Shown here piece after piece: positions 19,531 through 45,430 of a stretch of 64,000 nt of DNA. This DNA comes from an uncultured Clostridia bacterium (GTDB taxonomy: Bacteria > Acidobacteriota > Aminicenantia > UBA2199). The stretch's first letter is position 1; each line of letters opens with the position of its first letter. Where the stretch lies: assembly GCA_964562095.1 (NCBI GenBank), contig CAZLSH010000002.1, positions 9,597 through 73,596 on the forward strand, in the 5' to 3' direction. The notes below the pieces were generated by a model, which ran no database searches, had not been told where the DNA came from, and was given only the letters and a program-made list of their open reading frames with translations. Made by a program: the position numbers and the translations under genes.

Positions 19531-20286
19531 TCATGGTTTGACGGACTCTTTGCGCAAAGTACTCTCGAAGGCGGCCAGGGTATCGAGGATCAGCTGGCGG
19601 TTGGATGTCCCCTTGAGCACGCAGCGGATGGCGGGCTGGTGCAGGGCATAGCTGAGCCTGGACAGAATGTGAAGGTGGGAACGGACCGTGTGGGTGATGA
19701 TGGTGAAGACGGTATCAACCGCCTTGCTGTCCAGGGCGTTGAAGTCGATGGGCTGTTCAAGAAAACACAGCGCCAGGACCGGTTTTTTCACATGAAATAT
19801 GATCGGGTTTCTGACGTGGGGGATGGCGATGCCGTCGCCGATGGCGGTGGTGCCGAGGTTCTCCCGCGCCAGTAGAGCTCCGATCAGGAATTCCCTGTCC
19901 ACATCGTCGGGGAGGTGCATGATGTTGACGATCGACCGGAGCACGCTCTCCTTGTCCGTGCCGGGGATGCGATAATGGATGCCTCCGGCGTTGAGCGACT
20001 CGGTCAGCGCCGGCATTTCATCGTCGGTCTCGAAAGGTTCATCGAATATCGCGGGGGAGAGCTTTATTTTTCTGGCCGTGGCCCATTCCAGCAATTCCAC
20101 CCTGTTGAAGCGATAACCTTCACCGATCTTGTAGGCTGGGATCTCTTTTTTCGCTATCCAGCGGTAGATTGTTTTATCCGAAACCGCCAACATCTGGGCA
20201 ACTTCCTTTAATCCAATCATCATGGAAAAATTCAACTCCTTGCTTGAGAGTGCGGTTGGTATACTATAGAAAAATGTATAATCCAT
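19531..20286 (-). CDS. Regulator: excisionase/MerR-type HTH fused to a PTS EIIA(Fru/Ntr)-type domain
   Basis: N-terminal HTH_17-like helix (LKEVAQMLAVSDKTIYRWIAKKEIPAYKIGEGYRFNRVELLEWA). The C-terminal PTS_EIIA_2 domain carries the phosphorylatable His motif GIAIPH. It lies 8 nt upstream of the NuoL-like gene on the same strand. The start could instead be the MM pair at 20218-20223. Confidence 0.7.
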   Translation of the reverse strand: MDYTFFYSIPTALSSKELNFSMMIGLKEVAQMLAVSDKTIYRWIAKKEIPAYKIGEGYRFNRVELLEWATARKIKLSPAIFDEPFETDDEMPALTESLNAGGIHYRIPGTDKESVLRSIVNIMHLPDDVDREFLIGALLARENLGTTAIGDGIAIPHVRNPIIFHVKKPVLALCFLEQPIDFNALDSKAVDTVFTIITHTVRSHLHILSRLSYALHQPAIRCVLKGTSNRQLILDTLAAFESTLRKESVKP

Positions 20287-20634: not shown

Positions 20635-21888
20635 TCACTCGATCTGCGCGGAGACGTACTCGGTCAGCTTCCCCAGGCAGTTCACGTAACTGCCGTACTC
20701 GTTGTCGTACCAGCCCATGATCTTGGCGTGGGTGACGGGGATATTGACCTCGCGCATGCCACTGACGCCGATGGCCGCCAGCACGTCCTGGGGAACCTGC
20801 AGGAAGCCGGTCCGGGTGTGGATCTCCTGGCCCTCGATCACGACGGCGGCGGGAAAGCCCAGCAGGTCCTGGGACACGTTCTGCTTGGTGGAAAAGACGA
20901 GCAGGCCCTTCTGCGCCCCGTCCGCGGCCGAGCGGTAGATTCCCTTGATGTGCTCGGTGTTGATGAAGGGCATGCCGTTCTCGTTCAGGCGGGAGCTGAA
21001 GGTGATGTTGAGGGCGATCAGCGAGACGGACGGCGTGGGGATGCGGATGGAATCGGCCATGAAGCCGAAGCGGCTCGTCTGCGGGATCACCTTCTCCAGC
21101 GTCTTGGCGGCGCCGGTCGAGGAGAGGATGATGTTGTTCAGGACCGAGCGGTTCTTGCGCAGGTCCGAGGCGCCGGCGGCGGGAACGGAGTCCAGGACGC
21201 TCTGGGTATTGGTGGCGGCGTGGACGGTGGACATGGAGGCCGTGAGGATGTGGCTGGTTTCGCGGTCTTCCAGCAACGGCTTGATCATGTGGGCCAGGCC
21301 GGTCGTCGTGCAGCTGGCCGCGGAGACGATGTTGTGGCGCATGGGGTTGAAGCTGGCGTGGTTGATGCCGTAGATCAGGGTGGGGCAGGCCTCGGCGTCG
21401 GTCCAGGACGCTCTCTTGGACTTGAAGGGGGCGCTGACGATGACCTTCTGGGCGCCGGCCGCCAGGTGCCCGGCGACGCTGCCCCGGGCGTCACTGGCGG
21501 GGACGCCGGGATCCAGGAACTTGCCGGTGCAGTCGACGACGACACGCACCCCCTCTTCCTTCCAGCGCAGGTTCTGGGGGTTCCGCTCCCGGTTCAGGAA
21601 CTTGACCCGGAACCCGTCGATCGCCAGCCAGCCGTTGGGCCCGTCGACGACCTCGATGGCGCACGTCCGGCCCGAGTGGCCGTGCAGGAAGTGGTCCAGC
21701 GAGCCGTAGGTCGAGTCCGAGCGGATCGCCTGGATGAAATCGTCGACGCTCTTGCCCACGTCCCGGCCCACGTTGGCCACGATGCCGTCGAACTTGCGGG
21801 AGACCAGGTGATACCACAGGGTCAGCTTGCCGATGCGGCCCAAGCCGTTGACCCCCAGCAGCTTCTTGTCATGGATGCTTGCGTTCAC
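20635..21888 (-). CDS. gap: Glyceraldehyde-3-phosphate dehydrogenase family protein, long form (~417 aa) with internal insertions
   Basis: NAD-binding GVNGLGRIGK, catalytic ASCTTTGLAH and C-terminal WYDNEYGSYVN motifs. A GTG start at 21886-21888 is preceded by AAGGAGAAGG; the N-terminal 85 aa of the listed ORF look like non-coding read-through. There is an extra ~80 aa relative to canonical GAPDH. Confidence 0.7.
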   Translation of the reverse strand: MNASIHDKKLLGVNGLGRIGKLTLWYHLVSRKFDGIVANVGRDVGKSVDDFIQAIRSDSTYGSLDHFLHGHSGRTCAIEVVDGPNGWLAIDGFRVKFLNRERNPQNLRWKEEGVRVVVDCTGKFLDPGVPASDARGSVAGHLAAGAQKVIVSAPFKSKRASWTDAEACPTLIYGINHASFNPMRHNIVSAASCTTTGLAHMIKPLLEDRETSHILTASMSTVHAATNTQSVLDSVPAAGASDLRKNRSVLNNIILSSTGAAKTLEKVIPQTSRFGFMADSIRIPTPSVSLIALNITFSSRLNENGMPFINTEHIKGIYRSAADGAQKGLLVFSTKQNVSQDLLGFPAAVVIEGQEIHTRTGFLQVPQDVLAAIGVSGMREVNIPVTHAKIMGWYDNEYGSYVNCLGKLTEYVSAQIE

Positions 21889-21911
21889 GATGCCTTCTCC
21901 TTCATGGTATT

Positions 21912-24900
21912 TTACAATGCCTGGATCTGGATGGGATAATTCCCTTGGTAGACGATGCCCTTGTGGCCGTCGATGGCGATCGGGTCGCAGGACAGAAAGA
22001 CAGTGCCGTTGATGACGCAGCGCTTGTCGCCCTCGGACACGAGCATGTCGTCGCAATTGACGACGCAGGTCTTGCCCAGCGTGGCCGCGGTAACGGCGGC
22101 GTGGGAGGTCGCGCCGCCCTTGCTGGTCAGCAGTCCCTCGCACTCGATGATCATCTCGATGTCCTCGGGCACGGTGTCGGGGCGGACCAGGACGGCCTTC
22201 TGCCCCGGGGCGCGCCGGCGCAGGGCCGCCAGGTCGTCGCGGTCGAAGACGACGGCCCCGTTCAGCACGCGGTTGCCGATGCCGATGCCGCAGCCGACCC
22301 GCTTGCGCTTCTTCTCGGGCGTGGCGAACGTTTCGATCTCGGTCTGCTTGACGATGACCATGTCCCGCGTTTGCAGGATGTACAGGTCCTCAGGCTCGGC
22401 CTTTTCGAACGTGAACTCGATTTCCTGGTGGCCGAAGCCGTGGACCTCGATGAGCTCGTTGGCGATCCGCTTGAGACGGTCGTAGATCCTCGGAAATGCG
22501 GTCTCGAGCGAGAACGGGCTCTTGCGGTAGTAGGTCCGCCGCTGGTTTTCGCTGATCGGCAGGGTGTTGACCAGGCCGGCGACGATGTCTTCGCCCTGGC
22601 TGAGGAAGGTGAAATCGCCGGCCAGGTTGACGCCGGGAACATCGTCGTTCACGTCATGGGTGAACAGCACCCCGGAGCCCGATTCGTTGTGCAGGTTGCC
22701 GAAGATCATCTGCTGCACGATGACGGCCGTGCCCCACTCGGGGGCGATCTGCATGTGGTTGCGGTAGAAGCGGGCCCGCGGCGTGTCCCAGGAGTTGAAC
22801 ACGGAGATGACGGCCTCCTTGATCTGCAGGAAGGGGTCGCTCGCGAACTGGATGCCGTGGTCGCGCAGCAGCCCCCGGTAGGCGAAGGCGATCTCGCGCA
22901 TGACCGGCGGCGGGAAATCGATCTTGCGCGCCACGTGGCGCGCGCGCTTGAAGCTGTCCATGATCTGGTCGAACTGGTTCCGTTCCAGGCCGTAGGCCAT
23001 GCCCCACGTCTGCAGCAGGCGGCGGTAGCAGTCCCACGACGTCCAGCCGAAGTTGGGCTGGCGGCTGAGCTCCTCGGTGATCTCGTCGTTCAGCCCCACG
23101 TTGAGGAAGGTGTTCATGGCGCCGGGCATGGAGATGGCGGCCCCGGAACGGACGCTCAGCAGCAGGGGCTGGCGGGGATCGCCGAAGCGCAGGCCCGAGA
23201 TGCGCTCGAGCTCCGAGACGTGGCGGCGGATCAGGGCGTCGATCTCCGCGTTCAGCGACGGGATCTTCAGGATCGCCTGCACCCGGCGGAAGACCTCGGT
23301 GGTAAGCACGAAGCCGGGCGGTACCGGAAAGCGGTTCAAGTAGAGCTTCTTCAGGTAATAGGCCTTCGAGCCCAGGAACACCTGGTTGTCCATCGCCGGC
23401 GTGCCTTCATAGAGGGGGCTGATCACCAGGTCGGGGTCGTAGGCCATGATGCTCTGGATCTCCGGGTCGGAGAGGTTGCCGGCAAACTTGCGCAGGTTGT
23501 TCAGGACCTCGCCGATGAACTGGTCCAGGGTCTGGAGCAGAAACGCCGAGGAGAGGAGCTCGCGGTAGAAGATCTCCGCCTTCTGGCAGACGACCTTGCG
23601 GTCGGCGTCTGGCACGTACTGGGGAATGATGACGTTCAGGAGACGGTCGTAGGGGCGGATGAAAAACTTGTTGATGATTTCCTTGACGCTGGTCTCCATG
23701 AACTGAAAAATGTTGATGTATTGGCGGATGGTGAAGCTGCCCGAGGTGAGGCTGTACAGGAGCATCTTCAGGTTGGCGTCGAATCCCTGGTCGTAGATCC
23801 CGTCCAGGCTCAGCCCCTCCTGCAGCAACTGGATGACCGCGTAGATGTTCTTCAGGGTCTTGGCGGTGAAATAGTCAGTGTGGATCCCGGCCATGACGTC
23901 GGCGACCAGGACGGCGGCGATGCGCTCGAGCCGGAAGGTCAGCCCCAGGGCCTCGAACTTGGGCTCGCGGTACTCGCCGTACATGGAGGGGATGCCGAAG
24001 GCGACATGCCGCTTGTAGTAGATGTTTTCCCAGCCCTCGCTCGGCTGCGGGTCGAAGAGGATGGCGTTCAGCTTGCCCATGAACTGGTAAATGAGCTTCA
24101 GGGCCTCCACGCTCCGGTTGGCGGCCAGGGCGGCCTCCAGCCGCTGGCGGTCCTCGGCGGCGATGAAGGCGTGCCGCACCAGCAAGCGGCCGATGTCATC
24201 GGTCTCAAAGTGGTATTTTTCCTTCAGCAGCTGGTGCAGCTCGACGATCAGGGCCACGCGCCTGGCGTCGCTGCCGCCGCCCTGGGCCAGCGCGTCCAGG
24301 CTCCGCGCGCGCTCCTTGGCCTGCCGCGCCAGCCAGTCGTCCACGGAGAGGGAGCCCTCCGCCAGCAGCCCGGACAGGACCTGGTGCACCCCCCGCACCC
24401 ACGGCCCGGCGGGTTCAATCGTCTCCAGGACGTTCTGGGGGACGAGGCCCTTGAGGCGCTCCGCGTCCAGGTCGGCCCAGAAGCGGATGATCTCCGCCGT
24501 GAGCTGGATGTGCGTGTTGTTGCCCTCGGCGTGGACCTGCTTGCGCAAAAAATGGATCAGCTTGTCGTTGCGGTGGGTGATCTCGTCGAGCCTCGTCGTC
24601 ACGTCGCGCAGGCGCCCCTCGGCCCCGATCTCGTTAAAATACACCGGGAAGATCCGGGTCAGCTGCTTGATCTGCTTGTAAATGGGCGACACGGTGGCGT
24701 TCAGCAGCCGGGTGACGTCCTTTTGGAACAGGTCGGTGTCGAAGATGAAGATGCCGCCGACGCGCAGGTTGATGATCAGCGCCGACAGCAGGTTCTTCAT
24801 CGTCTCTGGGTCGTACTCGATCAGCTCCAGCCAGACGCGGATGTTCTTGACGTGGTTGGGATTGACGTTCAGCGACCACTCGTCGGTCAGGCGCGCCGCG

Positions 24901-25985
24901 CCGGGGGAAACGAAGCCGAAGCGGATGACGCGGTCCTCGAAATGGTGGATCAGCCGCCGGTTGTGGGTGTTGATGATCTCCTTGCCCAGCCCCAGGATGG
25001 AATCGAGGATCAGGCTCGTGCTGTCGTGCTTCAGCTCGGCGAAGAGCCCGAACAGTTCGTCGACGGCCTGAACGGTCTGGTCCTCGCTCAGCTCCTGGCC
25101 GATCCTGCGGATGGCGTTGTTCAGGTCGATGAGCAGGTAGTCCCGATGGTACACCATGCCCGGCAGGTGGATCAGGTACAGGATGTAGCGGAACTGCTCG
25201 GCGGCCCGGGCGAAGCGGTCGGTCGTCTTGCGGAAGGAGTCGATGACGTCGGGAAAGGCGAAGGACTGCTTGGCCAGGTCCGCCCAGGTCCGGGCGTGCT
25301 TCAGGTCGCGTAGGCAGGCGTTGAAAAAGCCGCGTCCCAGCGGCTTGAGCGCCGGCGCATAGTCCCGCGACATGATGCGGCGGTTGGCCTGGTACCAGGC
25401 CTCGATGTCGGCCGTGTCGCGCCAGAACAGGATGCTTTTCTCGATTAGGCGGCGCATGAAGGCGAACGCCTCCGGCGCCGCCGCGCCCGCGGCCGCGCCG
25501 TCGAGGCTTTTGCCGAAGTAGCCGAGGTTGCTCATGTACCCGAACAGGTGGTTGTCCAGGTGGACGTCGAGGATGGCGATGAAGCGCCGGTCCAGCGGCT
25601 CGCTTTCGGCCGCGGCGTCCTGGTTCTTGCTGAAGAAATGGAGGAAGAGGAAGACCAGGCGCCGGGACAGCTCGTCGGACAGCCGCTCGCGAAGCAGGGC
25701 GTCGAACAGGTCTAGGAAGAGCTGCAGGACGCGGCCGCACTCGTCCCGTTGGCGGTACACCCAGAAGTCGCTGACGGCCACCTGGCCGAGCAGATCGATG
25801 ACCTCCTTGCGGTTCGAGTAGGGGTGGTTGAACTCGGTGACGAATTCGCAGGCCCGTTGGTGGATCCCCCAGGTGCTGGTCGTGAGCGACAGCAGCCACT
25901 GGTGCTCCGCGGGAATCGCGAACTCCACGCTCCGCGTCTCGGCCAGGTTGGCCTCGAGCGCCTCGGAGCGGATCGCGCGGGTCAT
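21912..25985 (-). CDS. Large PPDK-like protein: unassigned ~700-aa N-terminal region, then a pyruvate,phosphate dikinase-type ATP-grasp nucleotide-binding domain and a phosphohistidine (PEP-utilizer mobile) domain; no PEP/pyruvate TIM-barrel domain
   Basis: The middle region is colinear with the PPDK N-terminal domain (LGSKAYYLKKL...FPVPPGFVLTTE, LLLSVRSGAAISMPGAMNTFLNVGLNDE, GTAVIVQQMIFGNLHNESGSGVLFTHD, GEDIVAGLVNTLPIS, EIEFTFEKAEPEDLYILQTRDM). The C-terminus is GLLTSKGGATSHAAVTAATLGKTCVVNC (catalytic-His swivel domain). It overlaps the upstream gap by 4 nt and sits 23 nt from the downstream long gap. Confidence 0.75.
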   Translation of the reverse strand: MTRAIRSEALEANLAETRSVEFAIPAEHQWLLSLTTSTWGIHQRACEFVTEFNHPYSNRKEVIDLLGQVAVSDFWVYRQRDECGRVLQLFLDLFDALLRERLSDELSRRLVFLFLHFFSKNQDAAAESEPLDRRFIAILDVHLDNHLFGYMSNLGYFGKSLDGAAAGAAAPEAFAFMRRLIEKSILFWRDTADIEAWYQANRRIMSRDYAPALKPLGRGFFNACLRDLKHARTWADLAKQSFAFPDVIDSFRKTTDRFARAAEQFRYILYLIHLPGMVYHRDYLLIDLNNAIRRIGQELSEDQTVQAVDELFGLFAELKHDSTSLILDSILGLGKEIINTHNRRLIHHFEDRVIRFGFVSPGAARLTDEWSLNVNPNHVKNIRVWLELIEYDPETMKNLLSALIINLRVGGIFIFDTDLFQKDVTRLLNATVSPIYKQIKQLTRIFPVYFNEIGAEGRLRDVTTRLDEITHRNDKLIHFLRKQVHAEGNNTHIQLTAEIIRFWADLDAERLKGLVPQNVLETIEPAGPWVRGVHQVLSGLLAEGSLSVDDWLARQAKERARSLDALAQGGGSDARRVALIVELHQLLKEKYHFETDDIGRLLVRHAFIAAEDRQRLEAALAANRSVEALKLIYQFMGKLNAILFDPQPSEGWENIYYKRHVAFGIPSMYGEYREPKFEALGLTFRLERIAAVLVADVMAGIHTDYFTAKTLKNIYAVIQLLQEGLSLDGIYDQGFDANLKMLLYSLTSGSFTIRQYINIFQFMETSVKEIINKFFIRPYDRLLNVIIPQYVPDADRKVVCQKAEIFYRELLSSAFLLQTLDQFIGEVLNNLRKFAGNLSDPEIQSIMAYDPDLVISPLYEGTPAMDNQVFLGSKAYYLKKLYLNRFPVPPGFVLTTEVFRRVQAILKIPSLNAEIDALIRRHVSELERISGLRFGDPRQPLLLSVRSGAAISMPGAMNTFLNVGLNDEITEELSRQPNFGWTSWDCYRRLLQTWGMAYGLERNQFDQIMDSFKRARHVARKIDFPPPVMREIAFAYRGLLRDHGIQFASDPFLQIKEAVISVFNSWDTPRARFYRNHMQIAPEWGTAVIVQQMIFGNLHNESGSGVLFTHDVNDDVPGVNLAGDFTFLSQGEDIVAGLVNTLPISENQRRTYYRKSPFSLETAFPRIYDRLKRIANELIEVHGFGHQEIEFTFEKAEPEDLYILQTRDMVIVKQTEIETFATPEKKRKRVGCGIGIGNRVLNGAVVFDRDDLAALRRRAPGQKAVLVRPDTVPEDIEMIIECEGLLTSKGGATSHAAVTAATLGKTCVVNCDDMLVSEGDKRCVINGTVFLSCDPIAIDGHKGIVYQGNYPIQIQAL

Positions 25986-26989
25986 GTCCGTTCGCCGAGG
26001 TGCCGGAGCAGGTCGATGATGCGCGCCGCGTACCCCGTCTCGTTGTCGTGCCAGGCCAGGACCTGGACCAGGTCGCCGTCCAGCACCTTGGTGGCGAGGG
26101 AATCGAAGACGGCCGAGTGGCGGTTGCCGCCCACGTCGCTGCTCACGATAGGGTCGGAGACGTATTCGAGGATGCCGGCGAGCTCCCGCGCCGCGTGCCG
26201 GCGGAAGGCCTCGTTGATCTCCTGGCGGCGAGCCGCCCGCCGCAGCTGGGCGGTCAATTCCACGAACGAGCAGTCGGCGACCGGGACCCGGGTGGCCAAG
26301 CCGTCAAAAAGGCCCCGCAGTTCCGGGAAGATGGTCTGGACGGCCGGGACGGCGCTGGTGGTGGTGGGGATGATGTTGCAGATGGCCGAGCGCGCCCGGC
26401 GGAAGTCGGCGTGGGGCCCGTCCTGGAGGTTTTGGTTGTTGGTCACGGGATGGATGGTGTTCAAGAAAGCCCGCCTGACCCCGAATTCGTCCAGCAGCAC
26501 CCGCAGCATGATCGCGACGCAGTTGGTCGTGCACGAGGCGTTGGAAATGAGTGCGTCCCCGGGCTGCAGGTCATGGTGGTTGACGCCCACGACAACCGTC
26601 CGGTCCAGGGAACCGTCGCGGGCCGGGCAGCTCAGGATCACTTTCCGGGCGCCGTTTTCCAGGTGGCCTTGCAGGGAAGGCCGGTCCTTGAACCTGCCGC
26701 TGGCTTCGACGACGAACTCCGCTTGCCCCTGCCGCCAGGGGATGGCGGCCGGACTGGCCGCGCCGCTGACGGGGATGCTCCGGCCGTCGACGAGGAGGCC
26801 GCGGGCATCATAGCCGACCTTGGCCGGGAGCTTTCCGTGCAGGCTGTCGTAGGCGAGCAGATGGGCCATCAATTCGACGCCCATCGGATCGTTGACCTGC
26901 ACGACCTGCAGATCCGGCGTCTCCAGGGACAGGCGCAGCACCAGCTTGCCGATCCTGCCGAAGCCGTTGATGCCGATTCGGGCGGCCAT
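25982..26989 (-). CDS. gap: Glyceraldehyde-3-phosphate dehydrogenase, canonical type I
   Basis: MAARIGINGFGRIGK, ASCTTNC and WHDNETGYA motifs; 335 aa. Confidence 0.9.
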   Translation of the reverse strand: MAARIGINGFGRIGKLVLRLSLETPDLQVVQVNDPMGVELMAHLLAYDSLHGKLPAKVGYDARGLLVDGRSIPVSGAASPAAIPWRQGQAEFVVEASGRFKDRPSLQGHLENGARKVILSCPARDGSLDRTVVVGVNHHDLQPGDALISNASCTTNCVAIMLRVLLDEFGVRRAFLNTIHPVTNNQNLQDGPHADFRRARSAICNIIPTTTSAVPAVQTIFPELRGLFDGLATRVPVADCSFVELTAQLRRAARRQEINEAFRRHAARELAGILEYVSDPIVSSDVGGNRHSAVFDSLATKVLDGDLVQVLAWHDNETGYAARIIDLLRHLGERT

Positions 26990-27240
26990 GCCCGATCACC
27001 GGTGCCCGGCAACGGCCGGTGCGAAGCGGGGCGGAAACTCTTCAGTCGGTCTTGTCATCGTCGCTTCTTCCTCGCATGACGTCTTCGCGGCCCGCGGCGG
27101 CCGCGCTCCGCTCGTGAGCGGTCAATATGAATAATCTCTTTGAAATCGTAGGTATTGTCATTCTAAACCGTTTGCCGCAAAATTTCAAGCGCGCGCCGGA
27201 GACCGGGGACGGGGCACGGAAAACGGGGACGATACTCGCG

Positions 27241-27292
27241 CAAGGCAAACGGCAAAGGGAAAAAGGCAAAAGTGAGGAAAGAGGCCCTGCAA
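27241..27292. repeat. GGCAAA-rich purine-arm repeat (partial copy of the intergenic hairpin-element family)
   Basis: CAAGGCAAACGGCAAAGGGAAAAAGGCAAAAGTGAGGAAAGAGG resembles the arms at 34727 and 45350. Confidence 0.35.
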
Positions 27293-27384: not shown

Positions 27385-30147
27385 CTATGTTTTGAGGTTC
27401 TGGAACAACCTGAGCAGCTGGGTGCGGTTGCCGACGCCGAGCTTGCCCAGGATGTGGTGGACGTGGATCTTGACCGTGCTCAGCTCGATGTAGAGTTTTT
27501 CGCCGATCTCCTTGTTGCTCAGCCCTTTCAGCAGCAGCAGCACGATCTCCTTCTCGCGGGGGGAGATGGCGCATTTGTCCAGCAGCTGGTCCATGGCCTC
27601 GCGGGAGCGGATCCTGGACGCCCGGCGGCGGAGGCGGGTGCGGTTCAGTTCGAGAACCAGCAGGGCGACGGCCAGCGCCAGCAGCGACAGGAACCACCAC
27701 GACTTCCACCATGGTCCGCGCACGCGGACGACCAGCGTGGTCTCCCGCTCGTTCCACAGCCCGTCGCTGTTGGAGCCTTTGACCCTGAACGTGTAGGTCC
27801 CGGCCGGCAGGCGCGAGAAGGACGCGAGCCTGCGCTTGGCGTCGGTTTGGATCCAGTCGTCGGTCAGCCCCTCCAGTCTGTAGGCGTAGCGGTTCTTCAT
27901 CGGGGCGGAGTAATCCAGGGCGGCGAACTCCAGGGAGAACAGGTAGTCCCGGGGGCGGATGACGATTTCGTCCGTCTCCCAGATGGGCCGGGCCAGCCGG
28001 GCCTCGCGGTTCAGGATCCTGAACGAGGTGATGTGCACCGGCGGCGCGCAGGGGCTGTCGGTTATCTCCTCCGGGAAAAAGGCGTTGAAGCCGTTGACGC
28101 CGCCGAAAAACATTTCGCCGCGCGGGCTCAGGTAGCGGGCGCCGAAGTTGAACTCGTTGCCCTGCAGGCCGTCGTGGACGTCGAAATTCCTGAAAGCCCC
28201 GGCGCGCGGGTCGAAGCGTGACAGCCCCTCGAAGGTGCTGAGCCAGAGGCGGCCCGTGCGGTCCTCCAGGATGCCGTAGATCTCGTTGCACGGCAGCCCG
28301 TCGCGCTTGGTGAAGTGCGAGAACGTCCGCCGGGCGGCGTCCAGTCGGTTCAGCCCGCCGCCCCAGGTCGCGATCCACAGATTCCCCTCGCGGTCCTCGT
28401 GCAGGTCGAAGATGTAGTTGCTGCTCAGGCCGGCCGGGTCGGACGCGTCGTGCAGGCTGCGGGCGAACGTGCCGGTTTCCGGCAGGAAGCGGTTCAGCCC
28501 GCCGCCGTAGGTGCCGATCCACAGGGCGCCGGAGCGGTCCTGCAGGATGGCGCGCACCTCGTTGCTGCCCAGGCTGCGGGAGTCGTCGCCGTCATGCTGG
28601 AAGCGGCTGAACGTGTTGTTTTCGCGGCTCAGGCGGTTCAGCCCGCCGGTCAGCGTGCCGACCCACAAGTTGCCGGCGCGGTCCTCGGCCAGAACGCGGA
28701 TCTTGTCGTCGCTCAGGCTGTGCGGGTCCTGCGGGTCGTGGCGCAGGGCGGTGAAGGCGTTGCGGCGGCGGTCGAAGCGATTCAGGCCTCCGCCGTCGGT
28801 GCCGATCCAGAACTCGCCGCGGCTGTCGACCAGCAGGTTGCGGACGAACCGGTCGCTCGGCCCCGCCCCGCCTTCCACGACGGAGGGATAACGGGAGAAG
28901 GAGCGGCGTTCTGGATCGAGCCGCTCCAGGCCGCCCATGGTGCCGATCCACAGGCTGCGGTCGGGGTCCTCGTGGAAGCAAAAAACCGCGGCGTTGCCCA
29001 GCCTGTCGGCGCGGCCGGGCAGGGGGTAGTGGTGGTCAAAGCGCATCTGATTGGCGCTGACCTTGTCGACGCCGGTCCCGAAATTGCCGATCCACAGGAT
29101 GCCGGAACGGTCCTCGCAGATCGACAGAACCTGGTCGTAGCCCAGGCTGTAAGGGTCCTGGGGATCGTGGCGGAAAACGGAAAACTCGCCGCTCCTGGGG
29201 TCGCCGCAGAGAAGCCCCTCCTGGGTGGCGATCCACAGCCGGCCGGAGCGGTCCTCGCTGATGTCGTTGACCTGGAGCAGCGGGGGAATGTTCCGCTTGC
29301 CGGCCAGGCGCTCGCAGCCGCCCGTGCGCCGGTCCAGGCGGTCGAGGCCGGCCTGGGTGCCGATCCACAGGGCGCTGCCACGGTCCTCCAGGATGGCCAG
29401 GATGCGGTCGTGGCTGAGGGTGGCCGAATCGTCGGACCGGTGAGAGTGGCGCTCGAAGGTCGTGCCGCCGCGGCGGAGCCGGTTCAATCCCTCATCGGTG
29501 CCGATCCAGAGAGTCCCCTCGCGGTCCAGGCACAGGGCGTTGACCTGGTCGTGGCTCAGGCTGGAGCCGTCGCCTGGGCGATGCCGGAATATGGTGAAAC
29601 TTCCCGTGGCCCGGTCCAGGCGGTTGAGGCCGTTGTTGGTCCCGACCCAGAGAACGCCGTCCCGGTCCTCGACCAGGGCCTGGACGACGCTGCCGCTGAG
29701 CCCGCCGGCCGGCACGGGCGTCTTCCAGTAGGAGTGGAACGCGTCGGCGGCCGGGTCGAAGCGACTCAGGCCGCCGTTGTGGGTGCCGATCCACAACGTG
29801 CCATCTTTGCTCTCCATGAGTTTCACGACGTGGTTCTGGTTCAGGCTGGAGCCGTCGCCCGGCACGTGGCGGTACTCGCTGAAGGTGTAGCCGTCATGGC
29901 GGTAGAGGCCGTTTTCGGTGGCGAACCACATGAAGCCAAGGTGGTCCTGGAGGATGTCGAACACGACGCTGGGCGTGAGCCCCGAGGTCGCCGGGACGTG
30001 CTCGAAGCGCAGCCTGCCGCCCTCGGCCGGCAGGCGGAGGCAGAGGACCGGCAGCATAAAGGTGAGCGCCGCCAGGGCGCTCGTGGCGAGCCTGGCCGGC
30101 CTGGAAGCTTTTGCACGGCACGGGGAAAAGGATTTCCTGCAATTCAT
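27385..30147 (-). CDS. Membrane sensor-regulator: signal peptide, periplasmic beta-propeller (two-component-regulator propeller repeats), Y_Y_Y domain, TM helix, C-terminal LuxR/GerE HTH
   Basis: Repeated GLxxFD/LWIGT propeller blades are present. The LuxR HTH is LSPREKEIVLLLLKGLSNKEIGEKLYIELSTVKIHVHHILGKLGV. There is a TM segment (WWFLSLLALAVALLVLEL) and no kinase or receiver domain. The start is probably MNCRKS at 30147; the ORF-track start is 30261. Confidence 0.75.
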   Translation of the reverse strand: MNCRKSFSPCRAKASRPARLATSALAALTFMLPVLCLRLPAEGGRLRFEHVPATSGLTPSVVFDILQDHLGFMWFATENGLYRHDGYTFSEYRHVPGDGSSLNQNHVVKLMESKDGTLWIGTHNGGLSRFDPAADAFHSYWKTPVPAGGLSGSVVQALVEDRDGVLWVGTNNGLNRLDRATGSFTIFRHRPGDGSSLSHDQVNALCLDREGTLWIGTDEGLNRLRRGGTTFERHSHRSDDSATLSHDRILAILEDRGSALWIGTQAGLDRLDRRTGGCERLAGKRNIPPLLQVNDISEDRSGRLWIATQEGLLCGDPRSGEFSVFRHDPQDPYSLGYDQVLSICEDRSGILWIGNFGTGVDKVSANQMRFDHHYPLPGRADRLGNAAVFCFHEDPDRSLWIGTMGGLERLDPERRSFSRYPSVVEGGAGPSDRFVRNLLVDSRGEFWIGTDGGGLNRFDRRRNAFTALRHDPQDPHSLSDDKIRVLAEDRAGNLWVGTLTGGLNRLSRENNTFSRFQHDGDDSRSLGSNEVRAILQDRSGALWIGTYGGGLNRFLPETGTFARSLHDASDPAGLSSNYIFDLHEDREGNLWIATWGGGLNRLDAARRTFSHFTKRDGLPCNEIYGILEDRTGRLWLSTFEGLSRFDPRAGAFRNFDVHDGLQGNEFNFGARYLSPRGEMFFGGVNGFNAFFPEEITDSPCAPPVHITSFRILNREARLARPIWETDEIVIRPRDYLFSLEFAALDYSAPMKNRYAYRLEGLTDDWIQTDAKRRLASFSRLPAGTYTFRVKGSNSDGLWNERETTLVVRVRGPWWKSWWFLSLLALAVALLVLELNRTRLRRRASRIRSREAMDQLLDKCAISPREKEIVLLLLKGLSNKEIGEKLYIELSTVKIHVHHILGKLGVGNRTQLLRLFQNLKT
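27421..27940. repeat. ~520-nt block near-identical to 30456-30975 (3-prime ends of the two sensor paralogs)
   Basis: A constant offset of 3035 nt. Roughly 430 nt are perfectly identical and the ends have scattered mismatches. The encoded C-terminal ~200 aa are identical except for 1-2 residues. Confidence 0.85.
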
Positions 30148-30296
30148 GGCGTTTCCGGCAATCCGGGGGACATCGAGGAGGAGATCGCCTGTCCGCCGGG
30201 GCTGAAGACAATAAGACGTTTCCTCTAGGGGAATGGTTTCCATTCCGCCTCCGAAAAACAACTTTTAATGAAAACATTATAGGATCATTAATAATT

Positions 30297-30314
30297 AATT
30301 CAATAAATTGAATT
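30297..30314. promoter_or_regulatory. Palindrome AATTCAATAAATTGAATT (TTCAA-N4-TTGAA) in the AT-rich region upstream of sensor paralog 1
   Basis: A perfect inverted repeat inside a 150-nt AT-rich island, ~150 nt upstream of the MNCRKS start. A matching site lies upstream of paralog 2. Confidence 0.35.
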
Positions 30315-30419
30315 ATTTTGATGCAAAATTAATTGCCACCTTTCTCATCCATGGATAGACCGGATTCGTTCACTGACCTGACTCTGCGAACACTGCCACT
30401 GCCACTGATTGATTCGGCG

Positions 30420-33134
30420 TCAGGTCTTCAAATTCTGAAATAGCCTGAGCAACTGGGTGCGGTTGGCCACCCCGAGCTTGCCCAGGATGTGGTGGACGTG
30501 GATCTTGACCGTGCTCAGCTCGATATAAAGCTTTTCGCCGATCTCCTTGTTGCTCAGCCCTTTCAGCAGCAGCAGCACGATCTCCTTCTCGCGGGGGGAG
30601 ATGGCGCATTTGTCCAGCAGCTGGTCCATGGCCTCGCGGGAGCGGATCCTGGACGCCCGGCGGCGGAGGCGGGTGCGGTTCAGTTCGAGAACCAGCAGGG
30701 CGACGGCCAGCGCCAGCAGCGACAGGAACCACCACGACTTCCACCATGGTCCGCGCACGCGGACGACCAGCGTGGTCTCCCGCTCGTTCCACAGCCCGTC
30801 GCTGTTGGAGCCTTTGACCCTGAACGTGTAGGTCCCGGCCGGCAGGCGCGAGAAGGACGCGAGCCTGCGCTTGGCGTCGGTTTGGATCCAGTCGTCGGTC
30901 AGCCCCTCCAGTCTGTAGGCGTAGCGGTTCTTCATCGGGGCGGAGTAATCCAGGGCGGCGAACTCCAGGGAAAACAGGGAATCCCGGGGATGGAGGACGA
31001 TTTCGCCGGTTTCCCAGATGGGCTTGTCCAGCCTGACTTCCTTGTTCAGCACCCTGAAAGACGTGATCCGCACCGGGGGGACGAACGTGTTGTCCAGGAT
31101 TTCGTGCGGGAAAAAAGAGTTGAAACCGTTGCTGCCGCCGACGAACATCCTGCCGCTCCGGCCCTGGCAACAGGCTTTGGAAATGAAGGCCCGGCCTTGC
31201 AGGCCGTCGTCCTCGTCGTAGCTGCGGAAACGCTTCGTGAGCGGCGAGAAACGCGACAGCCCGTCGTTGGTCGTGATCCACAGGTCGCCCACGCTGTCTT
31301 CGAGGATCCCCAGCACCATGTTGCTGGCCAGGCCGTCGGCCTTGGTGAAGTGGGTGAACTTCCCGGTTCCCGTGTCCAGCCTGTTCAGGCCGCCGCCCAG
31401 GGTGCCGATCCACAGGCAGCCTTGGCGGTCTTCATGCAGGCAGAAGATGAAGTCGTCATTCAGGCTGGCGGCATCGGCAGCGTCGTGCCGGTAGCGGATG
31501 AACGTGCCGGTCTCGGGCACGAAGCGGTTCAGTCCGCCGCCGTAGGTGCCGATCCACAGCGTTCCGGAGCGGTCCTCCAGGAGGGCGCGCACGATATCGT
31601 CGCCCAGGCTGGTGGGATCGTTCTCGGTGTAGCGGTAGTGGCGGAACACGCCGCTGCCGCGGTCCAGGCGGTCGAGGCCGCCGCCGTACGTCCCGATCCA
31701 GATGGTGCCGGCCGTGCCCTGGCAGATGGACAGGACGCGGTTGCTGCTGATGCTGCCGGGCTGCCGCAGGTCGTGGCGCTGGACGGTCACCCGGCCGGTG
31801 CGTGGGTCGAACAGCTGAAGCCCGCCGCCGTCGGTTCCCAGCCAAAACCTCCCGTCCCGGTCCCAAAGCTGGCAGCGCACGTTGACTTCTCCCAGTGTCC
31901 CGGGTGGGCCGGAGCCGTAGCCGAAATGGCTGATGGCGCCGGTCTGTTGGTCGAGTTTGTCCAGGCCGCGATGGGTTCCGATCCAGAGCGCTCCATCCGG
32001 CGCCTCCATGAGCGACATGATCAGGTTGCTGCCCAGGGTGTTCTCCCGGCCGGGGATCAAGCGGAAATGGGAGAAAGGTGTGTGGTAGGGATTGAAGCGG
32101 CAGATTCCGTTTTCGCCCGAGCCGACCCACAGGATGCCGGAACGGTCCTCGTGGAGCGAGAAGACCTGGGTGAACGGCAGGCTTCTGGTATCCAGCGGGT
32201 CGTGGCGAAACACTTCCGCGCTTCGGGACGTGTCGCCCAGGCAAACCAACCCCATCGATGTGGCCAGCCAGAGCCTGCCGTTGCGGTCCTCGTGGATGGC
32301 ATGCACCCGGGGCGGCTGCACGGCATGGCCGTCCAACCCCGGCAGAGGGGTGGGAGCGAATCGCCGGGACTGGTGGTCGAAGCGGTACAGCCCGTTGTCG
32401 GTGCCGATCCACAGGGTTTGCCGGCTGTCATGGTGCAGGCAATACACATTGTCGTCGCCCAGGCTGGACGGGTCGGCGGGGTCGCGGCGGAAATGGACGG
32501 AGTGGCCCGTCCTGCGGTCCAGGCGGATGATCCCGCCGCCGAAGGTGCCGATCCACAAAGCGCCTTCGTGGTCCTCGCAGATGGCATGGACATGATCGCT
32601 TTGGCCTGGCCGGTCCTGGGCCAGCGGTTGCGGCGTAAAGCGCCCGGACGCCCGGTCGAGACGGGCCAGGCCCCTGTCCGAGCCGACCCAGAGCGTGCCG
32701 TCGCGGTCCTCGCAGATGGCGCTGACGATATCGTGGCTCAGGCTGTCGCTGCGGCCGGGAATGTGCCGGAAGTTGCGAAATTCCCCCGAATGGGGATCAT
32801 AGCTGTTCAGCCCGCCGTTGAGCGTGCCGATCCAGAGGCTTCCCTCGCGATCCTCGAATAGCTGCAGCACGGAATTGTGGCTCAAGCTGGACGAATCACC
32901 CGGAACGTGCTGGAACACGGTGAATTCATAGCCGTCGAACCTGTTCAGGCCGCACTCCGTCCCGAACCACATGAACCCGCTGCGGTCCTGCAGGATCGAA
33001 TAGACCGTATGGTGCGAAAGCCCTTCGGTCCTGCCGGCGTGAAAAAAGTTTAAATCCATCCCGGCCGGCTCCAGGCGCAGGGAGAGAGCCAGGATGGCCA
33101 GGCAGGCGAAGCAAACGGCGGTCTTGCTGTTCAT
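30420..33134 (-). CDS. Membrane sensor-regulator paralog 2: signal peptide, beta-propeller, Y_Y_Y, TM, LuxR HTH
   Basis: Same architecture as 27385-30147, with a diverged propeller region and a near-identical C-terminal third. The start MNSKTAVCFACLAILALS at 33134 is preceded by a GGAGGG RBS. Confidence 0.75.
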   Translation of the reverse strand: MNSKTAVCFACLAILALSLRLEPAGMDLNFFHAGRTEGLSHHTVYSILQDRSGFMWFGTECGLNRFDGYEFTVFQHVPGDSSSLSHNSVLQLFEDREGSLWIGTLNGGLNSYDPHSGEFRNFRHIPGRSDSLSHDIVSAICEDRDGTLWVGSDRGLARLDRASGRFTPQPLAQDRPGQSDHVHAICEDHEGALWIGTFGGGIIRLDRRTGHSVHFRRDPADPSSLGDDNVYCLHHDSRQTLWIGTDNGLYRFDHQSRRFAPTPLPGLDGHAVQPPRVHAIHEDRNGRLWLATSMGLVCLGDTSRSAEVFRHDPLDTRSLPFTQVFSLHEDRSGILWVGSGENGICRFNPYHTPFSHFRLIPGRENTLGSNLIMSLMEAPDGALWIGTHRGLDKLDQQTGAISHFGYGSGPPGTLGEVNVRCQLWDRDGRFWLGTDGGGLQLFDPRTGRVTVQRHDLRQPGSISSNRVLSICQGTAGTIWIGTYGGGLDRLDRGSGVFRHYRYTENDPTSLGDDIVRALLEDRSGTLWIGTYGGGLNRFVPETGTFIRYRHDAADAASLNDDFIFCLHEDRQGCLWIGTLGGGLNRLDTGTGKFTHFTKADGLASNMVLGILEDSVGDLWITTNDGLSRFSPLTKRFRSYDEDDGLQGRAFISKACCQGRSGRMFVGGSNGFNSFFPHEILDNTFVPPVRITSFRVLNKEVRLDKPIWETGEIVLHPRDSLFSLEFAALDYSAPMKNRYAYRLEGLTDDWIQTDAKRRLASFSRLPAGTYTFRVKGSNSDGLWNERETTLVVRVRGPWWKSWWFLSLLALAVALLVLELNRTRLRRRASRIRSREAMDQLLDKCAISPREKEIVLLLLKGLSNKEIGEKLYIELSTVKIHVHHILGKLGVANRTQLLRLFQNLKT
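30456..30975. repeat. Partner copy of the near-identical block at 27421-27940
   Basis: See 27421-27940. Confidence 0.85.
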
Positions 33135-33306: not shown

Positions 33307-34707
<1,401 letters not shown>

Positions 34708-34726
34708 CCTGCAGAGCCAAGCCTCT

Positions 34727-34885
34727 CACAAGGCAAAAGGCAAAAGTAAAAAGGCAAAAGTGAAGAGAGCATTCCCAGAACTCCATATGGATTTGCCTCC
34801 ATTTCTATCCGGGCAGGGAAAGGCGAAATGAGAGTGCATCTTCCCAACTTTTGCCTTTTGCCTTTTGCCCTTTGCCTTTCTTTCC
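34727..34885. repeat. Intergenic long imperfect hairpin element: GGCAAAAG-rich arm, ~75-nt loop, CTTTTGCC-rich arm
   Basis: Left arm CAAGGCAAAAGGCAAAAGTAAAAAGGCAAAAGTGAAGAGAGC. The right arm CTTTTGCCTTTTGCCTTTTGCCCTTTGCCTTTC is its approximate reverse complement. Located directly after the eno stop. Confidence 0.5.
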
Positions 34886-34978
34886 CGGCTTTGTGCCTGG
34901 TTCACCGCAGTCAGGTTGGTCATGTCCGTTACTAGCGAGCACTTCCCCGTTAGCCGAAATCTATGGAAGATCCTCGCC

Positions 34979-36127
34979 ATGAAGTTCCTGGGCGAATTCC
35001 TGCCCATCGCGCCGGTGTTGATTCTCTTCTACACGGCGAACGGCCTGAACTCGACGCAAATATTCACCATCCAAGCCATCTTCCATCTCGGGGTACTGCT
35101 CATGGAGGTGCCCTCGGGCTACCTGGCCGATGTCGTCGGCCGCCGCAAGACGCTGGTTTTCGGGGCGGTGTTCTTTCCCCTAAGCCTGGCCGTTTACACG
35201 GTGGGGCGCAGTTTCGCCGCCTTCGTGTTCGCCGAGGTCATCCTGGCCGTCAGCGTCAGCATGCGCTCTGGATGCGACTCGGCATTGCTGTTCGACTCGC
35301 TGCGCCAGCTGAAGCGCGAGGGCGAGTACAAGCGCTTCGAGGGCCGCTGCGCCCTGTTCGCCCGCACCGGCACGGCGATCTCCTCGGTGGCCGGCGGCCT
35401 GCTGGCCTCGGTCTTCCTGCGCCTGCCTTTCCTGGTCAACACGGCCGTCGCCCTGCTCATGCCGGCGCTGTCCCTAGGCTTGCGCGAGCCCGAGCGCGAG
35501 AAGCGGCCCGGCAAGGAGCCGCTGCGCGACATCCTGCGCATCTGCCGCCACTGCCTGAGCGAGCCGCGCATCCGGCCGGTGATCCTGTACTGCGGCCTGA
35601 TCATGGCCGGCAACCTGACTGGGCTCTGGGCCTACTTCCTTTTCTACCAAGAGTTGCGCATCGGCATCGGCTGGTTCGGAATTCTCTTCGCCGTCTTCCA
35701 GCTCGCCGGCGCCCTGGGCGGGTCGCGCGCCCATGCCTTCAGCGAGCGCTTCGGGGAGAAGACCGCGCTGTACCTGGTGCTGCTCACCCCGCTCGTTTTC
35801 TTCATGCTCGGCCTGTTCCCGAGCGTGTGGCTCCTGCCCCTGATCCCGGCCAACGCCCTGGTGTGGAATTTGGCCTACCCGGTGCTGCTCGAACGCCTCA
35901 ACCTGGCCGTCGGCTCCGATGTGCGGGCCACCGTCCTTTCCCTGGCCGGCATGGCGGGCAGCGTCACCTTCATCGTCGTCTCGCCCCTCTTCGGCCGCCT
36001 GGTCGACGCCGTCTCCCTGTCCGTTGCCTTCATCGCCCTGGGAGTTTTCCTTCTCCTGGCCGGCGCCTGGCTCCTCTCCGCCGTGCTGCGCCACTGGCGG
36101 GAGACGCAGGGCCCCGAGACGATATGA
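34979..36127 (+). CDS. MFS transporter
   Basis: A 12-TM MFS profile with a GRR(K/R)-type loop motif (DVVGRRKTL). The start is uncertain (34865, 34925 or 34979); 34979 is chosen because 34865 lies inside the hairpin repeat. Confidence 0.55.
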   Translation: MKFLGEFLPIAPVLILFYTANGLNSTQIFTIQAIFHLGVLLMEVPSGYLADVVGRRKTLVFGAVFFPLSLAVYTVGRSFAAFVFAEVILAVSVSMRSGCDSALLFDSLRQLKREGEYKRFEGRCALFARTGTAISSVAGGLLASVFLRLPFLVNTAVALLMPALSLGLREPEREKRPGKEPLRDILRICRHCLSEPRIRPVILYCGLIMAGNLTGLWAYFLFYQELRIGIGWFGILFAVFQLAGALGGSRAHAFSERFGEKTALYLVLLTPLVFFMLGLFPSVWLLPLIPANALVWNLAYPVLLERLNLAVGSDVRATVLSLAGMAGSVTFIVVSPLFGRLVDAVSLSVAFIALGVFLLLAGAWLLSAVLRHWRETQGPETI

Positions 36128-36248
36128 TGGCGAGTGGTAGTGTTCGTGATAGTGTTAGTGAAGATATTCAAGTCATTTCCATTGAATTTCATGCCATTCA
36201 TGATATATTCTCGCCGGGGAACAGATTTTTATTGATTGGAGTGAAACG

Positions 36249-36971
36249 ATGGAGCTGAATTATTCGATCGCTGACGAAATTTTCGCGAAGTTTCCCGAAT
36301 ACAGGCGCGGGGTGGTCGTCGCCCGTGGCGTGCGCAATGGCGATTCGCCTCCCGAGCTGGTCGGGATGCTGCGTGAGGAGGAGGCGCGGGCCAGGGAGAG
36401 GCTCAACATGGACACGCTGACCGCCGAGCCGCGCCTGGCCTCCTGGCGGGAAGCGTTTCGCCGGCTGGGTTACAAGCCCGGCGATTTCAGGCCCTCGATC
36501 GAGGCCCTTCTGCGCCGGGTGCTGCGCGGACAGGAATTGCCTGCGATCAACGCTTTGGTCGACATCGGCAACGTCGTCTCGCTGCGCCGCCTGCTGCCGG
36601 TCGGGGGCCACGCCATCGATGTGCTGACCCGGGACATCGCCCTGAGTCCGGCGACGGGCAGCGAAACGTTCATCGCCTTCGGCGCGGAAGCTGCCGAGCA
36701 CCCGGCCGCGGGCGAGTTCATCTTCACCGAGGGGGATACGGTGCTGACGCGGCGCTGGATCTGGCGCCAGGCCAACCACACCCTCACCCGGCCGGAGACG
36801 AAAGCCATCGAGTTCAACATCGACGCCCTGCCGCCGGTGAGCGCTGAGGATGTTCAGGCGGCGGGGAGGGATATCATGGAGCTGGTCGCCCGTTTCTGCG
36901 GCGGCAGCGCCCGCTTCGACGTCCTCGATCGGCGGCAGCCGTTCTTGCGGCTGGCGGAGTCGGCGCCCTGA
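36249..36971 (+). CDS. B3/B4 tRNA-binding domain protein (COG3382-like)
   Basis: About 240 aa with the B3/4-domain profile typical of PheT-related standalone proteins. RBS GGAGTG. Confidence 0.5.
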   Translation: MELNYSIADEIFAKFPEYRRGVVVARGVRNGDSPPELVGMLREEEARARERLNMDTLTAEPRLASWREAFRRLGYKPGDFRPSIEALLRRVLRGQELPAINALVDIGNVVSLRRLLPVGGHAIDVLTRDIALSPATGSETFIAFGAEAAEHPAAGEFIFTEGDTVLTRRWIWRQANHTLTRPETKAIEFNIDALPPVSAEDVQAAGRDIMELVARFCGGSARFDVLDRRQPFLRLAESAP

Positions 36972-37110
36972 AGAAATTCCGCTCCCGATGCGTCTGAAAA
37001 ACAAATCCGGCGCCTGGGCCGTATAGAACTTTTGAAATTCAATATATTTGGATAAAAATTGGAATGAAACCATAGCGGTTGATTTATTGACTTCAATCAA
37101 GGAGAAAAGG

Positions 37111-45149: not shown

Positions 45150-45430
45150 GTTAGTGATCGTGTTAGTGTTAGCAGGAGAGCAGTGACTTCGGTTGCAATC
45201 ATTGTAATCGGTTGACGGGTGACGGTTTACGGTTTTCGGGAAGAGAAGTTCCCGCCATCTCTTGTTCTTTCTCATCACGCATCACGCATAACGCATAACG
45301 TAATCCGTGTCACGCGTTACGAAGTTCGTTCCTATTTCAATGCCAGTTCTTCACTTTTGCCTTTTGCCTTTTTACTTTTGCCTTTGTCTCACCCTTCGCC
45401 TTATGCCCTGCGCCTTGCGCCGGGCTCGCT
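45150..45430. repeat. Repeat-rich intergenic region: GTGTTAGTG-type heptamers, CGGTTGACGGGTGACGGTTTACGG, CATCACGCATCACGCATAACGCATAACG, then a CTTTTGCC-rich arm
   Basis: Several distinct short tandem repeats lie within ~280 nt, between the AmpG-like stop and the PilZ start. They share motifs with the elements at 36135, 41381 and 34727. Confidence 0.5.

Follow-up and report, generated by a model that had tools for sequence, protein, structure and literature searches.

Evidence for recurrent gene conversion of the output module in a tandem pair of BguR-like transmembrane regulators from a Candidatus Aminicenantes bacterium

Domain organisation of the two genes

The subject of this analysis is a tandem pair of genes, here called A and B, in a stretch of 64,000 nucleotides (nt) of DNA (the window) from a Candidatus Aminicenantes bacterium. 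In all likelihood they encode transmembrane one-component transcription regulators similar to BguR of Formosa agariphila, and their 3' module has been overwritten repeatedly by gene conversion. The genes are located as follows:

27385-30243, minus strand: gene A, an open reading frame of 952 amino acids (aa), the paralogue with the A-type propeller
30420-33134, minus strand: gene B, an open reading frame encoding a one-component regulator of 904 aa that spans the membrane

The initial annotation, made from the sequence alone, described two adjacent proteins of about 920 aa with the same architecture and with no histidine kinase or receiver domain, and this description holds. Gene A starts at an ATG with GGAGG just before it, giving 952 residues, and an alternative start gives 920. 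The same Pfam domains are found in both proteins: Reg_prop repeats (E values of 1e-74 in A and 3e-76 in B), a Y_Y_Y domain (1.4e-17) and a GerE helix-turn-helix (HTH) domain (5e-15 to 8e-15), which in gene B are arranged as 12 Reg_prop repeats, Y_Y_Y and GerE. Neither protein has a HisKA, HATPase_c or Response_reg match in Pfam or NCBIfam. There is an N-terminal hydrophobic anchor (residues 50-74 in A, 1-26 in B) and exactly one further hydrophobic helix (845-869 in A, 797-821 in B), followed by an Arg-rich stretch and then the HTH, and the cytoplasmic part amounts to only about 85 residues.

AlphaFold2 generates a model of B with a mean pLDDT of 85.6, which contains 14 four-stranded blades, an Ig-like sandwich at residues 688-793 and a helical HTH, as well as a long helix that spans residues 801-829. 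The best match found by Foldseek is the periplasmic domain of BT4663 (4A2L; TM-score normalised to the target 0.88, rmsd about 4 Å, 28-29% identity), and the homology to BT4663 spans the whole of the periplasmic part (phmmer E value 4e-119). Taken as a whole, A and B are thus very probably regulators with a periplasmic double seven-bladed β-propeller and an Ig-like Y_Y_Y domain, one transmembrane (TM) helix and, joined to it by about 30 residues of linker, a cytoplasmic HTH of the GerE/LuxR type.

The propeller halves of A and B are clearly diverged, as had been noted from the sequence, with 43-51% protein identity and a proportion of differing synonymous sites (pS) of about 0.45-0.70. The two propellers presumably bind different ligands.

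An identical block at the 3' ends

The 3' ends of the two genes present a very different picture. It had been claimed that they share about 520 nt of near-identical sequence, with about 430 nt of perfect identity, at a constant offset of 3035. An ungapped comparison at this offset confirms the claim and extends it slightly: the perfect run is 440 nt long (27497-27936 = 30532-30971), and the wider block 27390-27989 has 576 matches in 600 positions (96%). Further 5' in the genes, the identity falls to about 60-70%, with a value of about 62% for the upstream flank of the perfect run. The block forms the 3' end of each gene, and in gene A the perfect run covers the codons for Y_Y_Y (27721-27915), for the TM helix (27637-27711) and for the linker, and extends about 24 codons into the HTH. 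The features of the block, with the limits of the conversion tract proposed below, are:

27497-27936, minus strand: gene A copy of the perfect 440-nt repeat, the maximal extent of the putative conversion tract
30532-30971, minus strand: gene B copy of the perfect 440-nt repeat, the putative donor, which is the same in the window and in the sister strain
27559-27878, minus strand: minimal B-to-A conversion tract, which holds all 57 differences between gene A of the window and gene A of the sister strain
27879-27936, minus strand: candidate junction on the upstream side (5' in the gene), 58 nt, where A and B are already identical in the unconverted strain
27497-27558, minus strand: candidate junction on the downstream side, at the start of the HTH, 62 nt, where A and B are already identical in the unconverted strain
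27385-27496, minus strand: unconverted end of gene A (C-terminal half of the HTH and the stop codon), the same as in sister-strain A

The synonymous sites are particularly informative. Within the 440 nt there are no synonymous differences between A and B, as against a pS of 0.5 upstream and 0.32 downstream. The last 110 nt or so of gene A, which make up this downstream part, are A-specific, and their differences from B are mostly synonymous (pS 0.32, with 0.01 at nonsynonymous sites). A comparison of synonymous divergence between the propeller and the 3' half had been suggested, and gives a pS of 0.49 upstream and 0.093 in the 3' block as a whole. It might be argued that such identity arises without any recombination, from purifying selection on the output module or from constraint on its codons, and it is true that the HTH and a PWW-TM motif are highly conserved throughout the family. 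This explanation is refuted by the synonymous sites, and we regard it as practically negligible.

It is worth adding that within the otherwise saturated propeller region there is one blade (28489-28566 in A, at around residues 548-587, and 31524-31601 in B) where pS is only 0.23 and A and B are 83-90% identical at the nucleotide level. This could be an old mini-tract, or could reflect strong constraint on a blade that is conserved family-wide.

A probable conversion event that differs between two strains

Further evidence comes from a metagenome contig of a sister strain in ENA (L001), which was aligned to positions 20420-43138 of the window. Outside two patches, the two sequences have about 27 differences in about 20.8 kb (approximately 99.87% identity). 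The first patch lies in gene A, where all of the 57 differences between the window and the sister strain fall at 27559-27878. Inside this patch, A of the window is identical to B of the window and to B of the sister strain. On both sides of it, A of the window is identical to A of the sister strain, including the A-specific last 110 nt or so. Gene B is identical in the two strains. The perfect run of 440 nt is far beyond what chance would give, because the sister-strain pair differs at 57 of the same 440 positions.

These observations directly support a non-reciprocal gene conversion from B to A, with a tract of at least 320 nt and at most 440 nt. The signature is that of a non-reciprocal change, in that B is unchanged, and A differs solely inside the tract and has kept its A-specific flanks. 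The ends of the tract fall in stretches of 58 nt and 62 nt that A and B already shared. The tract alters 25 residues of A, from K789R to R891C, in the distal part of Y_Y_Y, the TM helix and the juxtamembrane linker, and there have been no substitutions in the block since the event. After it, the HTHs of the Y_Y_Y/TM/HTH modules of A and B differ at a single residue (G/A).

The initial annotation had proposed recent gene conversion of the 3' module, and the unconverted A allele in a nearly identical strain bears this out. The proposal that the DNA-binding/TM module as a whole was homogenised needs some adjustment. The TM helix does lie in the fresh tract, together with the distal Y_Y_Y and the linker, but the HTH was nearly identical beforehand, and its last 110 nt or so are unconverted. 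The event was probably not the first of its kind. In the unconverted pair of the sister strain, pS is 0.12-0.13 from the TM segment through the linker into the first part of the HTH (residues 828-907 of A), as compared to about 0.5 in the propellers, and this suggests that the lineage had undergone such events before.

Gene conversion between bacterial paralogues is already known, as is the domain architecture of A and B, which is widely annotated. What is new here is that one conversion event has been caught as a difference between two near-identical strains. For an uncultured bacterium, this is ectopic gene conversion in an unusually clean form, in that the donor, the recipient, the limits of the tract and the micro-homologies at the junctions can all be read.

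The distribution of the alleles needs to be considered in this context. The exact protein of gene B is found on ENA contig ERZ926039 k127_85462, from PRJEB12083, a study of the River Cam and of hospital-effluent wastewater. The converted allele of A (P0121) comes from a 93,230-nt NCBI contig, while the unconverted allele (P0001) is on two ENA contigs. Several points weigh against our interpretation. The converted allele is known from a single assembly, and neither the cluster listing nor the look-up of the exact protein gave a second contig. The exact-protein look-up of window gene A returned no match, even though P0121, from NCBI, has the identical sequence. An A-specific 29-mer had 0 matches among JGI metagenome contigs, and a third independent copy of gene A was not obtained. 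The NCBI metagenome-assembled genome (MAG) and the ENA contigs may not be independent samples. Finally, the polarity between the strains rests on parsimony, and the A tract of the sister strain could in principle be a re-import from a conspecific that was never converted. Conversion from B to A is needed even in that case, because the 440 identical nucleotides must be explained. There is no evidence for a foreign origin of the sister-strain tract, since a BLAST search of the unconverted tract against all of the fetched loci gave no donor closer than 87.5%.

The presence of the converted allele on a single assembly also raises the question of an assembly artefact, in which the contig threads gene A through the tract of B, by means of a chimeric de Bruijn path or a bubble popped between the 58-nt and 62-nt anchors, and the true genome resembles the sister strain. 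The identical anchors beside the tract could indeed merge paths at k values of 55 or less, and the MAG was derived from a metagenome, with a population that shows mosaicism at the strain level. However, we infer that such an artefact would need two compensating path switches, double use of the B tract and the loss of an equally covered A tract, and that a true repeat of the form X-R-Y-R-Z, having only one Eulerian path, can be assembled. Moreover, the tract is an internal one that A-specific sequence flanks at either end, and an older, partial homogenisation is already present in the sister strain. The pairs of UBA2199 and MFD04716, described below, show the same 3' homogenisation with scattered mismatches, which rules out a simple collapse. 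An artefact is thus unlikely.

The second patch of difference between the window and the sister strain is found at 34840-36326, and has 212 differences (about 14%) that cover the whole of a major facilitator superfamily (MFS) transporter gene and the start of a B3_4 gene. The MFS proteins of the two strains are 87.6% identical, while the rest of the 22.7 kb differs by about 0.13%. This patch looks like an allelic replacement from a divergent lineage, and recombination appears to dominate divergence in this population.

Old sensors and homogenised output modules in other lineages

Among species representatives, Candidatus Aminicenantes UBA2199 and UBA6072 come closest, at 74-75% identity. The genome scan did not return the window's own genome, which is therefore not a GTDB species representative, and its placement among the Aminicenantes is based on these relatives. 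Tandem pairs were sought in the fetched loci using hidden Markov models built from an alignment of the family, and were found in three further genomes, namely UBA2199 (locus L011), MFD04716 (L015) and the Acidobacteria bacterium RA.bin124 (L013). The matched contig of MFD04716 is 600 kb long, and we take this genome to be a long-read MAG. Gene B is the orthologue of a syntenic, single-copy sensor gene that is divergent from enolase in other Aminicenantes. The anchor for this synteny in the window is:

33424-34707, plus strand: enolase gene, divergent from gene B

The propellers fall into two groups, with the following protein identities:

A-type group (A of the window, UBA2199_2, RA.bin124_1): 69-80%
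B-type group (B of the window, UBA2199_1): 73-77%

The propeller of gene A is 69-75% identical to those of UBA2199_2 and RA.bin124_1, and is equally distant (46-51%) from every member of the family outside the A-type group. The propeller of gene B is 74-76% identical to those of P0008 and P0011. Comparison of the C-terminal domains within each tandem pair gives the following protein identities (Y_Y_Y / TM and linker / HTH):

UBA2199: 98 / 100 / 95%
MFD04716: 94 / 87 / 97%
Window: 94 / 100 / 98%
Sister strain: 74 / 89 / 97%
RA.bin124: 66 / 57 / 85%

Neighbour-joining trees with 200 bootstraps were calculated separately for the propeller and C-terminal regions. Bootstrap support is 100% both for the A-type clade and for the B-type clade in the propeller tree. 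In the C-terminal tree, it is the paralogues that pair, by genome, in the window, UBA2199 and MFD04716, again with 100% bootstrap in each case. The A-type and B-type propellers are thus old orthologous groups, common to at least three species. It had been implied that the ligand-binding domains were diversifying after a recent duplication; this is contradicted by the age of the two groups.

The same pattern can be seen in the DNA. A change-point was located in each pair (numbered in residues of the first sequence), with these results:

Window: change-point 721; 97.3% identity over 183 codons, with the perfect 440-nt core; pS 0.093 in the block and 0.49 upstream
Sister strain: change-point 704; 86.5% over 200 codons; pS 0.264 in the block and 0.49 upstream
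UBA2199: change-point 711; about 98.5% over about 490 nt; pS 0.047 in the block and 0.57 upstream
MFD04716: change-point 664; about 94-95% over about 720 nt; pS 0.17 in the block and 0.56 upstream
RA.bin124: change-point 580, weak; no sharp block; pS 0.374 in the block and 0.50 upstream

All of the sharp 5' change-points lie close to the border between the propeller and Y_Y_Y. The divergence of the block differs between lineages (0%, about 1.5% and about 5-6%), indicating different ages. The propellers, then, follow orthology and the C-terminal modules the genome that they come from, and taken together these comparisons show recurrent concerted evolution limited to the output module of an old pair of paralogues. 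The tandem pair of RA.bin124, which has no homogenised block, counts against the generality of this conclusion, and the process is not universal. The gene order in this genome (L013 6811-12694) is enolase, divergent from the A-type gene, followed by the B-type gene; this is the reverse of that in the window and UBA2199, where enolase is divergent from B, which is followed by A.

The trees also speak to the explanations that do without recurrent conversion. Under constraint on the output module, paralogues would not be expected to group by genome with 100% bootstrap, nor would the orthologues of B be only 62-72% identical to B in the TM and linker region where the paralogue A is 89-100% identical. 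A further possibility is that a whole gene was recently duplicated in tandem and that the sensor half of one copy was then replaced, by a domain swap or by horizontal gene transfer, leaving the 3' identity as a remnant of the duplication. Reg_prop/Y_Y_Y sensors are highly modular, similar sensors being found with kinase, SpoIIE, GGDEF, sigma54-AAA and LuxR outputs, and the two propellers of MFD04716 do pair with each other, weakly (69.5% bootstrap). However, the tandem of an A-type and a B-type gene is common to the window lineage, UBA2199 and RA.bin124, and is therefore old. A duplication is also contradicted by the internal position of the tract, since the last 110 nt or so of A are still A-specific and the same as in the sister strain, which within gene A differs inside the tract only. 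This makes a recent duplication very improbable.

Gene conversion is known to keep bacterial duplicates such as tufA/tufB and the rRNA operons identical within a genome while orthologues diverge. The concerted evolution of A and B differs from that type in that it is confined to one module, has a sharp and recurrent boundary between sensor and output, and includes one event that is polymorphic between near-identical strains. This recurring homogenisation of a single module with a sharp boundary is new, and a search of the papers available for a precedent of concerted evolution confined to the output module of bacterial regulators returned nothing relevant. It implies a piecewise evolution of multidomain sensors in at least three lineages, in which the sensor domains diverge over the long term while the TM signalling and DNA-binding end stays as a single genomic version.

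Possible deletion at the repeat

A perfect direct repeat of 440 nt is a plausible substrate for RecA-mediated deletion or duplication. The possibility of deletion had been raised in the initial annotation, and the single sensor gene of UBA6072 (protein P0011; L012, and L003 10001-12721) is consistent with it. This gene is B-type up to about residue 720. Compared to A-type Y_Y_Y domains (the unconverted A and the A-type protein of RA.bin124), it is 90-97% identical over residues 721-780 and 83-87% identical over 781-810, whereas it is only 57-70% identical to B over residues 751-810. Had a B-A tandem lost the sequence between its two 3' blocks, just such a chimera of a B propeller and an A-type Y_Y_Y would be expected. 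The outcome would be no different if A had converted B and had then been lost.

It is also of interest that the UBA2199 contig (DCVB01000057.1, 7670 nt) stops partway through the second homogenised copy, as is typical where a short-read assembly breaks off at a repeat. This is a warning for the annotation of this locus in MAGs: true repeats of this sort can break or confuse short-read assemblies.

Comparison with known regulators

The closest parallel to A and B is BguR of Formosa agariphila, a one-component, membrane-spanning regulator of β-glucan utilisation, which acts as a transcriptional activator without a phosphorelay (bioRxiv 10.64898/2026.01.10.698779). The proteins are alike in having a signal peptide, a tandem β-propeller, Y_Y_Y, a single TM helix, a helical linker and a GerE HTH within about 900-940 aa, and in the absence of HisKA, HATPase or REC domains. 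The likeness is judged by domain architecture, and the species are from different phyla, Bacteroidota for BguR and Acidobacteriota (Aminicenantes) for A and B. Relatives in Flavobacteriales found in a genome scan are only about 28% identical. A and B also differ from BguR in that they are not beside a SusC/D polysaccharide utilisation locus (PUL), and in that they are tandem paralogues whose output module is shared and homogenised. The flanks of A and B that were examined contain neither SusC/D genes nor glycoside hydrolases. The occurrence of BguR-type regulators in Aminicenantes, in a conserved context that is not a PUL, is new.

The sensor itself has a well-known homologue in BT4663, a hybrid two-component system (HTCS) of Bacteroides thetaiotaomicron with a periplasmic sensor of known structure (PDB 4A2L and 4A2M; Lowe et al. 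2012, as cited in PMC8534201). A scissor-like closing of the dimer on ligand binding has been proposed for it. The Reg_prop/Y_Y_Y periplasmic sensors are homologous, and in both cases a membrane-proximal Y_Y_Y precedes the TM helix. BT4663 then continues to a histidine kinase, a receiver and an AraC HTH, whereas in A and B the TM helix leads directly to the LuxR HTH. Because no HisKA, HATPase_c, receiver or AraC HTH is detected in them, A and B are not members of the Bacteroides HTCS family, though the sensor is homologous.

By architecture, A and B also resemble TfoS of Vibrio cholerae and other transmembrane transcription regulators (TTRs), in which one TM helix links a large periplasmic sensor to a cytoplasmic HTH, and DNA is acted on by a protein that sits in the membrane. 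A model of ligand-induced dimerisation or rearrangement has been proposed for these proteins, and Y_Y_Y domains are found in 7.7% of catalogued TTRs (PMC3903286, PMC11856585, PMC10269533). TfoS differs in that its HTH is AraC-type.

Predicted promoters, a candidate operator and a proposed mechanism

Both genes have a predicted sigma70 promoter with a palindrome at its -35 element:

30276-30312, minus strand: predicted sigma70 promoter of A (TTGAAT-16-TATAAT); its -35 element is overlapped at 30299-30312 by the perfect 6-2-6 palindrome TTCAAT-TT-ATTGAA
33283-33320, minus strand: predicted sigma70 promoter of B (TTGAAT-17-TATCAT), in the divergent intergenic region between enolase and B; the palindrome TTCAATTATTTGAA at 33307-33320 overlaps the -35 element

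The 6-2-6 palindrome TTCAAT-NN-ATTGAA occurs only twice in the window, at these two promoters, as against an expected 0.4 copies. The same palindrome is found upstream of both UBA2199 paralogues and of the single UBA6072 gene (L003/L012). It is absent upstream of the sensor genes in several lineages (L006, L009 and L015), which counts against the proposed operator. A related box, ATTCAA-N4-TTGAAT, is found about 75 nt upstream of an operon of M16 peptidases in several lineages (L003 at about 6100, L006 at 6101, L009 at 6097, L013 at 3142 and L014 at 5995), and is degenerate in the window, near 37040. We suggest that the palindromic boxes are a candidate LuxR-type operator and a possible link between members of a regulon, and a candidate operator for BguR-type regulators can thus be nominated. 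The palindrome was also considered as an FNR or CRP site, which is improbable, as the half-sites TTCAAT/ATTGAA fit neither consensus.

On the basis of these observations, the last 180-240 codons of the genes, encoding Y_Y_Y, TM helix, linker and HTH, are very probably overwritten again and again by non-reciprocal homologous recombination from one tandem copy to the other, so that each genome holds one shared version of the output module. Binding of a ligand to the propellers may re-position the Y_Y_Y/TM dimer, by the kind of scissor motion proposed for BT4663, and the two GerE HTHs could then bind the palindromic operator TTCAAT-NN-ATTGAA, which overlaps the -35 elements of the promoters of A and B themselves. 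A and B would in this way drive the same DNA-binding specificity, with the same dimer and the same TM signalling geometry, and two different signals would converge on one regulon. With only the one G/A residue of the HTH setting the modules apart, the two proteins should have the same operator specificity, and heterodimers of A and B could form.

Homogenisation may be favoured by selection or may simply be tolerated. A tentative, and on balance rather doubtful, proposal is that it is selected because the sensors need a matched Y_Y_Y/TM/HTH: they would form heterodimers or compete for one 6-2-6 operator, giving a single regulon a logic gate with two inputs, and conversion would keep the interface and the DNA specificity co-adapted. 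The same 3' block would drive the birth and death of genes, as in the UBA6072 chimera. If this proposal is true, the locus would be a system in which nature joins new sensor domains to an output module that stays fixed.

Neighbouring genes and repeat elements

The neighbours of A and B are enolase, MFS, B3_4, two M16 peptidases, glyceraldehyde-3-phosphate dehydrogenase (GAPDH) and a protein similar to pyruvate phosphate dikinase (PPDK). At least 10 species of Aminicenantes have the conserved order M16-M16-B3_4-MFS-enolase, with the sensor gene or genes divergent from it. The PPDK-like protein (21912-25985, minus strand) has 1357 residues, with PPDK_N and PEP-utiliser mobile domains in the last 450 or so only, and its N-terminal 900 or so residues have no Pfam match. 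Its gene sits between two GAPDH-like genes (25982-26989 and 20635-22143). This GAPDH/PPDK-like block stands where related lineages have genes for a formate transporter and formate dehydrogenase downstream of the sensor. Further along, a small protein at 19531-20286 (minus strand) consists of an HTH_17/MerR-like DNA-binding domain fused to PTS EIIA_2, and adjoins an operon for a nuo/Mrp-like membrane complex.

Arrays of the heptamer GGCAAAA/G are present at four intergenic sites (27244-27272, 34732-34760, 34848-34876 on the minus strand and 45354-45382 on the minus strand), with 12 matches as compared to 0.09 expected, and may represent a REP-like element. Between enolase and MFS there is a hairpin with arms of 32 nt (34730-34761 and 34847-34878), and the MFS patch described above starts inside it. 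A direct pair, 27235-27281 and 34723-34769 (85% identity), brackets the A-B-enolase block.

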